Below are positions 28,401 to 31,400 of a DNA stretch of 64,000 nucleotides, one piece after another (position 1 is the stretch's first letter; each line of letters starts with the position of its first letter). Made by a program: the position numbers. The DNA lies in NCBI RefSeq assembly GCF_057098645.1, contig NZ_CM169472.1. One strand, 5' to 3'.

Positions 28401-31400
28401 CCCGGCGATCCATCCGCCGCGACGGTCTGAGCGAAGACCTGACCGTTGGCGCGATCCACTGCTTCCATCGCCGACAGGTTGCCGTACCAGGCGATATCCA
28501 CTTTGTTGAAACGCATTCCCTGGATAATGCCCGCGTAGTCCGGGGCAAAGAAGGCGTTGACCTTCACGCCCAGCTTCTTCTCCATATCCTGTAAAAACGG
28601 CGTCCATTGCGGTTTCAGGTTTTGCTGTGATTCCGTTGAAATAATGCCGAAATTCAGCGCCTTTTCCTGCTCTTCGGCGTGTGCCGGGCTTAACAGGGTG
28701 CTGAGGCTGAACATGCTGGTGAAGGCCAGCGAGGCAATTATCTTAGCGTTCATTCGTTTTCCTCAATGATGGGGATGTCAGGCAGCTTTCGCGTTCTCTT
28801 CGACGCGGTTAATACTGCGGTAGAGATGGTCAAAACGTTCGTTATCAAACTGTTGGCTGCTACCGTCGTAGAAGACGTGTCCCTGACGCAGGGCGACGAT
28901 GCGTTCGCAGTAGCGCAGGGCGTAATCCACCTGATGCAGCGTGACGACCACGGTGATGCCGTCGTTCTGATTGATGTCGCGCAGGGTGTCCATCACGATG
29001 CGGGCGGATTCCGGGTCCAGCGAGGCGATGGGGTCATCGGCCAGAATCACCTTCGCCTGCTGCATCAGCGCGCGGGCAATCGCCACACGCTGCTGCTGGC
29101 CGCCGGAGAGCGTGGAAACGCGCTGATGGGCAAAATGCACCATGCCAACGCGGGTTAGCGCCTGTAATGCGCGCTGTTTCTGCTCGCCGGTGAACCAACT
29201 TAAACAGGTGCGCCAGAACGGCGTGCTGCCGAGCGCGCCAATCAGCACGTTCTCCAGTACGCTCAGGCGGTTCACCAGGTTGAATTGTTGGAAGATGTAG
29301 CCGGTATGGGCGCGGCTTTTGCGGATATCGCGGGCCAGACGGCCTTCGCGCTGGACAGTGCGGCCCAGTAGCTCGATATGGCTACCGGCGGATTTATCGC
29401 CGGTAATCAAACCGCTTAAATGACGTAAAAGGGTGGATTTGCCGGAACCGGACGGCCCAAGCAGAGCCACCATTTCACCATGATGGATATTCAGATCAAC
29501 CGCGTGCAGCGCCTGATGCTGATTGAAGGTTTTGCTCAGTTGTTCGACGCGGATAATCGTTTGCATGATGCAGCCTCCCTAAAAAAGTGGCTCCATCGTG
29601 GCGGATTATTGTGACGATTTGGTTAATTAAAAGTGACTAACAGATGAAGAGTTAACGGGAATTCGATGACAGTGCGGGAGGGCGGGCCTCCCGGCGGATT
29701 ATTGCGTTGGTTGTTGTTTGACGACATTAATCATCCACGGTACGCCAAATTTATCGGTGACTTTGCCGAAGCCATGCGCCCAGAAAGTTTCCTGCCAGGC
29801 CATTTCGATTTTTCCGTTAGCGGCAAGGTTATCAAACCAGCGTTTTCCTTCTTCGACCTGTTGCGAATCGAGCACCAGCGTAAAGCCGGAGTAGCTGGCT
29901 TTTCCTGATGGTATAGCATCGCTCATCATGATATCGCTTCCGGCAATACGCACGTTGGCATGAGCGATGGCAGTATCGGGAAATTGCATTCCGGAAGGGC
30001 AGCCTTCGGCGCTGTCCTGCGCTGATTTTGGCATTTCGCCGAAGCTGATTTTATAGAGCAGTTCCGCGCCCAACGTACGTTGATAATAAGCAATTGCGTC
30101 GGCACAGTTACCGGCAAAAGAGAGGTAGGGACTTAACGGCATGATGGTGACCTCAGTTAAGAGAAGCCAGTTAAGTGTAGTTCGAAATTTATACAGATGA
30201 GAGGCGGCCTGATAAGACGCGCGAGCGTCGCATCAGGCATCTGGCACCGTTGCCGGATGCGGCGTAAACGCCTTATCCGGCTTACCGATCACAATACAAT
30301 CAGTTCTTTTTCACAAACTCAGATTTCAGTTTCATCGGACCAAAACCGTCGATTTTGCAATCGATGTTATGGTCGCCTTCAACCAGGCGGATGTTTTTCA
30401 CTTTGGTGCCAATTTTCAGCATCGAAGAGCTACCTTTCACCTTCAGATCTTTAATGATGGTAACGCTGTCGCCGTCAGCCAGCAGATTGCCGTTAGCATC
30501 TTTAACGATCAGCTCGTCGCTTTCCTGTGCAGGTTCTGCGTCGTTCCATTCGTAGGCACATTCCGGGCAGATGTACATGCCGTTATCTTCGTAGGTGTAT
30601 TCGGAGTTGCATTTTGGGCAGTGTGGTAATGACATGTGGATTTCCTCAAAAGTCAGCAGGGCAAAAGCGCCAAAAAACGGCAGATTGCCGAAAAAGGCCG
30701 CAATTATACACAAAATCCCTGAGTTTGTCGGGGGTACTGCTGATTTTAGACGACGATCGTTTTCATTTGAAAGGAAACGCAAAAAGAAAATAATCTTTTT
30801 GCCTCCATTTATTATTTAAGATAAGGTTAATGCTCTACTTGTTCTTTTTTTTATTCACATGATATTTTTATCTTTCTGACGTTTTAAACGTATCGGAAGA
30901 TGTTATTTATTCTAATAAAAAACAACACTCTAAATATAAAATTATTTCTTGCAGTAATTATAAAAGCCGAAAACAGAACTCAAAAACAATCTGGCTAAAT
31001 AAAAGTAATAAAATTTGCTTTAAGGAAGAATTTTCTATGTACACACAGACCCTGTATGAGTTAAGTCAGGAGGCTGAACGGCTGTTACAGCTTTCTCGCC
31101 AACAGTTGCAGTTACTGGAAAAAATGCCTCTCTCTGTACCCGGAGACGATGCGCCACAACTGGCTTTACCCTGGAGTCAGCCTAATATCGCCGAGCGTCA
31201 CGCGATGCTGAATAATGAGTTGCGTAAAATTTCCCGACTGGAAATGGTGCTGGCGATTGTCGGTACTATGAAAGCAGGGAAATCAACCACCATTAATGCC
31301 ATTGTTGGTACGGAGGTACTGCCTAATCGCAATCGCCCAATGACTGCGCTGCCGACGCTTATTCGCCATACGCCCGGGCAAAAAGAACCGGTACTGCATT

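Follow-up and report, generated by a model that had tools for sequence, protein, structure and literature searches.

The DNA between the divergent genes yjdM (= phnA, minus strand) and crfC (= yjdA/rdcA, plus strand) raises the question of how a very AT-rich stretch takes part in the control of a neighbouring operon, and whether sigma28 (FliA) acts in this stretch or elsewhere. The locus lies in a 64,000-nucleotide piece of DNA, which is referred to here as the window. The products of crfC/rdcA-rdcB feed the DgcE c-di-GMP switch between motility and biofilm (PMC6510439), and the control of this operon is, therefore, of some interest; beyond housekeeping, its importance is little. The AT-rich region between yjdM and crfC is real, ordinary and already known. 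The reading favoured here, with a probability of about two in three, is that it serves as the upstream control region of crfC (yjdA/rdcA)-rdcB (yjcZ), coated by H-NS and relieved by SlyA, and that sigma28 enters separately, inside crfC.

Extent and composition of the yjdM-crfC gap

The window is E. coli DNA, and the gene positions were taken from a RefSeq genome that is 99.9% identical to it (O145:H28). This annotation bears out the earlier view of the two genes as divergent neighbours. The gap between them, however, is not the roughly 250 bp given in the preliminary description. Because the annotated ATG of yjdM is at 30635 and not at 30782, the full divergent intergenic region spans 30636-31036, that is, 401 bp with 68.6% A+T. 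Position 30783, the left edge used before, is the limit of the longest possible yjdM reading frame, which begins with a TTG. An N-terminal extension of yjdM up to 30782 was rejected, given the annotated start at 30635 and the frameshifting indels of 2-4 nt that Citrobacter carries in the extension. Similarly, a small ORF at 30900-30998 (32 aa) was rejected as a gene, since its ATG is ACG in K-12. The gap is found in 5,412 of the 5,426 complete E. coli genomes, and among the matches listed for these genomes, no annotated RefSeq feature lies beneath it.

The AT-rich core of the gap is the interval 30783-31036, which corresponds to about 4324905-4325157 in K-12 (NC_000913.2; K-12 coordinates minus 4294122 give window positions). 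It was described as about three-quarters A+T, and the measured value is indeed 76.4%, against 47.3% for the whole 64-kb window. It is the richest 254-bp stretch of A+T in the 64 kb; only 0.013% of all 254-bp segments attain this value, and every one of them overlaps the interval. The first 50 kb contain 22 intergenic regions that are 60 bp or longer, and the yjdM-crfC gap exceeds all the others in both length and A+T content. In all the orthologous gaps of the Escherichia clades, Citrobacter and Yokenella, the A+T content of a 200-bp core is 72-77%, while the flanks have 44-48%. A composition of the H-NS type, with high A+T over at least 200 bp, is found here and is upheld in all the orthologues.

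Conserved blocks within the gap

When the gap was compared across the Escherichia clades, Citrobacter and Yokenella, the alignment divided it into five parts. The part next to yjdM (30636-30735, minus strand) is a conserved module of 52% A+T, with 88-90% identity between Escherichia and Citrobacter, and would comprise the promoter and the 5' leader of yjdM. A sigma70 promoter is predicted here on the minus strand (30703-30731), with CCGACA as the -35 (30731..30726), a 17-bp spacer and TATAAT as the -10 (30708..30703), and promoter scans place the start near 30696. Neither hexamer varies among the nine sequences aligned, which come from Escherichia, Citrobacter and Yokenella. The folding of the yjdM leader is not unusual in comparison with shuffled sequences (z = -0.68). 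The AT-rich interval had been taken as the promoter region of both divergent genes. This holds in a loose sense only: the conserved yjdM promoter lies outside the interval, in the GC-normal 100 bp adjoining yjdM; the AT-rich part is, therefore, the crfC side of the gap.

Next to this module is a non-conserved linker (30736-30798; 63 bp, 68% A+T). A sigma70-like sequence, TTGAAA-16-AATAAT, occurs on the plus strand at 30767-30794, with 10 of 12 matches and a predicted start near 30801, and is conserved in Escherichia only. The linker is followed by a conserved plus-strand island of 32 bp, TTGCCT-N17-TAAGGT (30799-30830), which is surrounded by unalignable DNA; its identity to Citrobacter is 75-78%, against 35-54% for its neighbours. 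At 8.7 bits, the island is the best plus-strand sigma70 candidate over the local background, and it may be a distal crfC promoter, with a start near 30834, or a site for binding of a regulator. The fourth part is a non-conserved AT-rich spacer of about 105 bp (30831-30936), with only 35-51% identity between genera and indels as long as about 125 bp.

The last 100 bp (30937-31036, plus strand) form a conserved crfC-proximal module, with 73-81% identity to Citrobacter. The module holds GTAATTATAAAAGCCGAA, in which TATAAA on the plus strand (30959-30964) overlaps TATAAT on the minus strand (30962..30957), and a crfC ribosome-binding site, AAGGAAG, at 31022-31028. It also contains an inverted repeat, AGCCG (30965-30969) and TGGCT (30992-30996), which is retained as AGCCG/YGGCT in seven of seven sequences with changes only from G-C to G-U. 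As there is no compensatory change among the seven, the repeat was rejected as evidence of a structure. Five sigma70-like hexamer pairs were counted, against 1.2 +/- 1.3 in shuffled sequences, and such a density is expected for AT-rich H-NS targets. In the genomic SELEX data for RpoD (sigma70), the yjdM-crfC spacer is not listed, and the yjdN/yjdM spacer is. The places to search for the crfC promoter are indicated by the two conserved islands, 30799-30830 and 30937-31036.

Sigma28 sites upstream of crfC and inside it

A partial sigma28-like -10 lacking a convincing -35 had been noticed upstream of crfC, and this observation holds. The sequence, GCCGAAAA at 30966-30973 on the plus strand, is exactly the -10 of yjdAp1, a sigma28 promoter predicted in RegulonDB, with a start that maps to 30980. 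The start of a second such prediction, yjdAp2, maps to 30965. GCCGAAAA agrees with the sigma28 -10 consensus, GCCGATAA, at seven of eight positions; the one mismatch is at a T that 46 of the 49 published FliA sites carry, and the same variant is found in tsr. The sigma28 -35, TAAAGTTT, is absent at 11 nt upstream of 30966-30973, where TCTTGCAG occupies its position. With a position weight matrix (PWM) for FliA, the site scores 4.8 bits, while the 49 real FliA sites score at least 8.4 bits, with a median of 17.1 bits. About 240 positions of the window equal or exceed this score, and the orthologous sites reach 4.6-8.3 bits. GCCGAAAA occurs nine times in the window against 4.4 expected, and two of these copies are in the gap, the first of them at 30687-30694 (plus strand) inside the yjdM-proximal module. 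By itself, GCCGAAAA is weak evidence, and the gap has no site of sigma28 grade. In the FliA ChIP-seq study of Fitzgerald 2014, none of the 52 peaks lies upstream of yjdA. Supplementary file 5 of that study gives yjdAp1 and yjdAp2 with inferred-position evidence only and with no peak, and its authors regarded the prediction of an upstream yjdA promoter as incorrect. In these respects, as in a PWM score below that of every real site, the two predictions differ from real FliA promoters, and the RegulonDB entries are to be corrected as unsupported.

The real FliA promoter of the crfC operon is TAAAGTTCTGGCAGAGCAGGTCGATGAA, which is present on the plus strand at 33010-33037, inside the 3' end of crfC, and drives yjcZ/rdcB. 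It is an exact match to the published FliA ChIP-seq motif, and its PWM score of 15.8 bits is the second highest in the window. It is also backed by ChIP-qPCR, a peak in the RpoF genomic SELEX and a FliA-dependent lacZ fusion. The site keeps the same position in the Escherichia clades, C. amalonaticus and Yokenella, with scores of 15.7-18.6 bits in Escherichia and 9.6-10.4 bits in the other two. Intragenic FliA promoters are known from (flhC)motAB-cheAW and (yafY)ykfB, and the (yjdA)yjcZ site is of the same kind, driving the gene downstream of it. It sits 2 kb outside 30783-31036 and is unrelated to the AT-rich gap. The sigma28 input is to be described as intragenic and as reaching rdcB, not as acting in the region upstream of the operon.

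It could still be proposed that yjdAp1 is genuine, with the conserved GCCGAA(A/T)A acting as a weak sigma28 promoter that ChIP-seq missed, and that full-length crfC belongs directly to the flagellar regulon. GCCGAA is retained amid AT-rich DNA in Escherichia and in four of four Citrobacter sequences, C. amalonaticus carries GCCGAATA, and the strong tsr promoter has the identical GCCGAAAA as its -10. The site of Escherichia sp. E1V33 attains 8.3 bits, close to the weakest real sites. The operon has also been called FlhDC/FliA-controlled from published expression data, and Table 2 of Fitzgerald 2014, the yjdA entry of which, (111)52 against (11)1, is ambiguous, has yjdA on a literal reading fall from 111 to 11 upon deletion of fliA. 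This fall is left unexplained by the model of H-NS upstream and FliA inside the gene. Nevertheless, the ChIP-seq peak is missing and the promoter was rejected by the authors of that study, RpoF genomic SELEX has its peak only inside the gene, and the score in the present genome is equalled or exceeded at so many positions of the window. The sole TAAA-like box (30937) lies too far away for the strict 11-nt spacing, by about 10 nt. Moreover, GCCG is an arm of the conserved inverted repeat, and this role would explain its conservation. A genuine yjdAp1 is, on balance, considered unlikely.

H-NS, SlyA and other readings of the AT-rich DNA

The binding of a nucleoid protein, which had been suggested for this region, agrees with three independent genome-wide ChIP studies that flag the crfC-yjcZ unit for H-NS at the resolution of transcription units. 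In Table 2 of PMC5797941, the unit is given as H-NS-associated in Kahramanoglou 2011 and Oshima 2006, and the S2 Table of Higashi 2016 gives yjdA-yjcZ as 'H-NS bound'. Since no other part of the unit is strongly AT-rich, 30783-31036 is probably the site of this binding. Overproduction of SlyA, an antagonist of H-NS, raises the crfC-yjcZ transcript 2.6-fold, and the SlyA-responsive gene set to which the unit belongs consists mostly of H-NS targets (PMC5797941). SlyA may act on crfC-yjcZ indirectly, for instance by way of LeuO. The gap has one match to the SlyA-type TTA-N6-TAA, at 30907-30918 in the non-conserved spacer, which may be taken as a lead only.

It is thus proposed that H-NS, with its preference for AT-rich DNA, would coat the AT-rich part of the gap and keep transcription of crfC from weak sigma70-type promoters low. 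Anti-silencers such as SlyA would then lift this silencing. The conserved 100 bp on the crfC side (30937-31036) would supply the core promoter, the 5' UTR and the ribosome-binding site. Sigma28 is inactive at the AT-rich gap; its entry into the operon is at the separate promoter inside crfC (33010-33037), from which rdcB is driven.

Other explanations of the same DNA have to be weighed against this model. The spacer may be functionless in itself, a relaxed stretch of AT-biased non-coding DNA, so that only the two conserved gene-proximal modules are functional. It is unalignable between genera, tolerates indels of about 125 bp and carries no specific motif. However, its A+T content of 66-76% is upheld in every species and far exceeds that of the other intergenic regions of the window, a conserved island of 32 bp lies inside the AT-rich DNA, and H-NS association has been published; such a passive role is judged improbable. 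Somewhat less probable still is that the gap encodes a minus-strand non-coding RNA running from the TATAAT at 30962..30957 to a hairpin and U-run directly upstream of yjdM. In yjdA/phnA of Shigella flexneri, Wang 2016 predicted a 328-nt sRNA, Ssr28, which lies in the gap in the direction of yjdM and was positive in RT-PCR; the accessible text of that report states no strand-specific RT-PCR, Northern blot or 5' end for it. The minus-strand TATAAT is perfect, scores 12.0 bits and belongs to a conserved block, and the small hairpin of the yjdM module (30690..30678), with six consecutive T after it, is terminator-like. Against this, the putative RNA body has only the between-genus identity of the spacer, its predicted folding is ordinary (z = -0.70), one C. 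amalonaticus strain does not keep the hairpin intact, and the RefSeq annotation is empty here among the matches listed. When 30200-31400 was compared with Rfam at E <= 1, the only hits were REP325/naRNA4, which is outside the gap, and a chance-level one within it (16.6 bits, E = 0.81). It is very doubtful, too, that GTAATTATAAAAGCCGAA is a symmetric bidirectional core promoter, whose minus arm would give a non-coding RNA of about 280 nt (Ssr28) that crosses the spacer and ends at the hairpin and U-run before yjdM. In that case, transcription across H-NS-coated DNA could couple the expression of crfC-rdcB and yjdM.

The preliminary description had also proposed phased A/T tracts and a curved region, and from this, an intrinsically curved, activating region of the Fis or UP-element type may be imagined in place of a silenced one. 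A/T tracts of at least 4 bp are indeed numerous. Their phasing did not hold, as 30783-31036 has an AA/TT power of 0.59 at 10-11.5 bp, against 0.75 +/- 0.36 in dinucleotide shuffles, 61% of which equal or exceed it; a helical-repeat periodicity of about 10.5 bp is no better than in the shuffles. In a wedge model, the ratio of end-to-end distance to contour length is 0.917, close to the window mean of 0.923 (0.27 for a phased-A6 control), and thus there is no global curvature. What remains of the claim is two local predicted bends, one near 30802, which ranks in the window's 99.9th percentile, and one at about 30671-30710, which is outside 30783-31036. The former coincides with an inverted repeat, GCAAAAAGA-N6-TCTTTTTGC (30779-30802), which is restricted to Escherichia, the G of its left arm not being retained in sister clades. 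The published H-NS association and the low basal level, 11 units in the fliA deletion, also speak against activation, and this reading is highly improbable.

The H-NS model is left as the preferred one, and the upstream region behaves like a typical H-NS-associated AT-rich block. Regions silenced by H-NS and relieved by SlyA or LeuO include hlyE-C0299, leuO, cas and adiY-adiA, the last of which is in the same window. A high-affinity H-NS nucleation motif, tCGwTwAATT, was reportedly described by Lang et al. in 2007. Unlike these regions, the gap lacks this canonical motif, with no match within one mismatch in 30636-31036 and the nearest one at 31423, inside crfC. Further, crfC itself is of normal GC content, and the locus is syntenic in at least three genera, so that no recent horizontal acquisition is evident. 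The likeness lies in other features: a block of several hundred AT-rich base pairs, dense in sigma70-like hexamers, lies upstream of a weakly expressed operon, which is associated with H-NS in genome-wide ChIP and the transcript of which rises when SlyA is overproduced.

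The yjdM-crfC gap and its composition

The DNA at 30783-31036 is a real, strongly AT-rich and probably H-NS-associated region upstream of crfC, with neither phased tracts nor predicted global curvature and without a convincing sigma28 promoter. The window belongs to E. coli. Positions 30300-31300 were matched in 5,417 of 5,426 complete genomes and are 99.9% identical to O145:H28 RM12761, from whose RefSeq annotation the coordinates of yjdM (phnA; 30300-30635, - strand), crfC (yjdA, rdcA; 31037-33265, + strand) and rdcB (yjcZ; 33262-34140, + strand) were transferred. The annotated limits thus place the divergent gap at 30636-31036, and its length is 401 bp rather than the roughly 250 bp of the preliminary description. 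Taken to its longest possible form, with a TTG start, the yjdM ORF extends to the left edge, 30783. An N-terminal extension of yjdM up to this edge was rejected as non-coding, because the annotated start is the ATG at 30635, with GAGGA in front, and 2-4-nt Citrobacter indels lie inside the extension. Between yjdN and yjdM, REP325/naRNA4 is present at 30206-30282 (- strand; Rfam RF02564, 99.9 bits). In a 2026 preprint this element is taken to be a terminator and stabiliser in the 3'UTR of the yjdMN operon, and endogenous yjdM mRNA could not be detected there by Northern blotting.

The A+T content of 30783-31036 is 76.4%, against 47.3% for the whole window, which bears out the earlier estimate of three-quarters. 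It is the top 254-bp stretch of the 64 kb, and the gap ranks first among 22 intergenic regions in both A+T and length. Further AT-rich peaks (68-70% A+T per 254 bp) lie at 8449-8795 (yjcS/response-regulator gap), 41697-42154 (adiY 5' end plus the adiY-adiA gap), 52793-53278 and 58567-58912.

The phased A/T tracts described previously were not recovered. Within 30783-31036, AA/TT periodicity at 10-11.5 bp has a power of 0.59, whereas dinucleotide shuffles give 0.75 +/- 0.36 and 61% of them equal or exceed the observed value. In the Bolshoy-Trifonov wedge model, the end-to-end/contour ratio is 0.917, close to the window mean of 0.923 (phased-A6 control, 0.27), and therefore no global curvature is predicted. 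What survives of the proposed curved promoter is a pair of predicted local bends, both reaching the window's 99.9th percentile. The bend near 30802 coincides with the inverted repeat GCAAAAAGA-N6-TCTTTTTGC, restricted to Escherichia, and the bend near 30671-30710 falls within the yjdM leader, beyond the AT-rich interval.

Conservation and promoter-like elements

Relatives were found by scanning representative genomes with CrfC. Syntenic loci in Escherichia sp. E1V33, E. whittamii, C. amalonaticus (three strains), C. koseri and Yokenella regensburgei share the order yjdN-yjdM, divergent from crfC-yjcZ-proP; in C. koseri the crfC match ends at residue 626, and yjcZ and proP were not found in the sequence examined. 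Orthologous gaps span 346-528 bp, each with a 200-bp core of 72-77% A+T and flanks of 44-48%. It was also observed that crfC and rdcB (31037-34140; homologous loci L006-L010) diverge much faster than the adjoining genes. Between Escherichia and Citrobacter/Yokenella, identity is 59-68% for CrfC and 53-62% for RdcB, against 91-95% for YjdM and 89-96% for ProP over aligned parts. On contigs labelled Leptolinea MAG (L016) and Gleimia coleocanis (L018), sequence 99% identical to E. coli crfC/yjdM is probably contamination of those assemblies.

The alignment splits the gap into five segments, given here with A+T and identity to Citrobacter: the yjdM promoter and leader (30636-30735; 52%, 88-90%), a non-conserved segment (30736-30798; 68%, 43-54%), a conserved island TTGCCT-N17-TAAGGT (30799-30830; 75%, 75-78%), a spacer tolerating large indels between genera (30831-30936; 75% here and 66-76% in every species, 35-51%) and a crfC-proximal module (30937-31036; 76%, 73-81%). 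The predicted yjdM promoter (- strand; -35 CCGACA, 17-bp spacer, -10 TATAAT) has both hexamers invariant in 9/9 aligned sequences. The segments place it in DNA of ordinary composition, so the AT-rich part of the gap goes with crfC.

The crfC-proximal module holds GTAATTATAAAAGCCGAA, the ribosome-binding site AAGGAAG and an inverted repeat, AGCCG-N22-YGGCT (30965-30969/30992-30996), shared by every Escherichia and Citrobacter sequence. The sole change in the repeat, G-C to G-U, could still pair in + strand RNA; no compensatory change occurs among these sequences, and thus the RNA structure is putative. Inside the conserved block, at 30957-30964, a + strand TATAAA (30959-30964) overlaps a - strand TATAAT (30962..30957), -10-like hexamers that suggest a symmetric bidirectional promoter layout. 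The predicted yjdM 5' leader contains a small hairpin, CGGCAAUCUGCCG, with a trailing U6 (30678-30690, - strand), only about 7 nt beyond the predicted start. Escherichia and most Citrobacter keep this hairpin, which is broken in one C. amalonaticus strain.

The gap might instead encode a - strand sRNA. In Wang 2016, Ssr28, of 328 nt, was predicted in the S. flexneri gap in the yjdM direction and was RT-PCR positive. The perfect TATAAT at 30962..30957 and the hairpin with its U-run at 30690..30678, before yjdM, would fit as its ends. However, the RNA body lacks conservation between genera, its folding is not unusual, and it has neither an Rfam family match nor a RefSeq annotation; such an sRNA is very improbable.

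FliA sites upstream of and within crfC

For the crfC upstream region, the earlier search for a sigma28 promoter had yielded only a partial -10-like GCCGAAAA (30966-30973). This is the -10 of the RegulonDB predicted promoter yjdAp1, whose predicted start (NC_000913.2 4325102) is window position 30980; that of yjdAp2 is 30965. The evidence for both is limited to inferred position, and the suggested check of FliA ChIP data gave no ChIP-seq peak at either (Fitzgerald 2014 supplement); the authors of the ChIP-seq study regard the predicted upstream promoter as mistaken. With a FliA position-weight matrix from published motifs, the yjdA site excluded, GCCGAAAA reaches 4.8 bits and the top site anywhere in the gap 7.3, against a minimum of 8.4 and a median of 17.1 for 49 published sites. 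The earlier judgement thus holds. Conservation of GCCGAAAA could be accounted for by the AGCCG-N22-YGGCT repeat without sigma28.

A published FliA site, TAAAGTTCTGGCAGAGCAGGTCGATGAA, matches exactly at 33010-33037, within crfC, and its 15.8 bits are the second-highest score in the window. It is backed by ChIP-qPCR, RpoF genomic SELEX and a FliA-dependent lacZ fusion, and is kept at the orthologous position in Escherichia clades (17.9-18.6 bits), C. amalonaticus (10.0-10.4) and Yokenella (9.6). The best match in the window, AAAAGAATTGCCGTGTATGGCCGAGAAT (11999-12026, + strand, 17.1 bits), is antisense within a D-lyxose/D-mannose isomerase gene (11367-12050, - strand), which belongs to a cluster of unnamed genes for sugar utilisation that also includes an ABC transporter and hybrid histidine kinase.

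Table 2 of Fitzgerald 2014 lists the 33010-33037 site as (yjdA)yjcZ (NC_000913.2 4327146), with '(111)52 against (11)1'; there, and in the published correction too, yjdA is given 111 for the wild type against 11 for the fliA deletion. As printed, these values imply a 10-fold FliA dependence of yjdA, against the same paper's text. In this entry a bracket may be misplaced ((11)152), the effect may be indirect, or a weak promoter may have been overlooked.

H-NS and SlyA

The proposal of H-NS binding agrees with published data at the level of the transcription unit. In the compilation of the SlyA regulon paper (PMC5797941), H-NS association of the crfC-yjcZ unit is recorded from both the Kahramanoglou 2011 ChIP-seq data and the Oshima 2006 ChIP-chip data, and Higashi 2016 flags yjdA-yjcZ as H-NS-bound, with yjcZ itself unbound. 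Because strongly AT-rich DNA occurs in the unit only within the gap, the gap is likely the site of this binding; it contains no match to the canonical H-NS nucleation motif. Its one TTA-N6-TAA match, at 30907-30918, is a putative SlyA-type site. The SlyA regulon paper reports a 2.6-fold rise of the crfC-yjcZ transcript on SlyA overproduction. The main features of the crfC upstream region are already in the literature.
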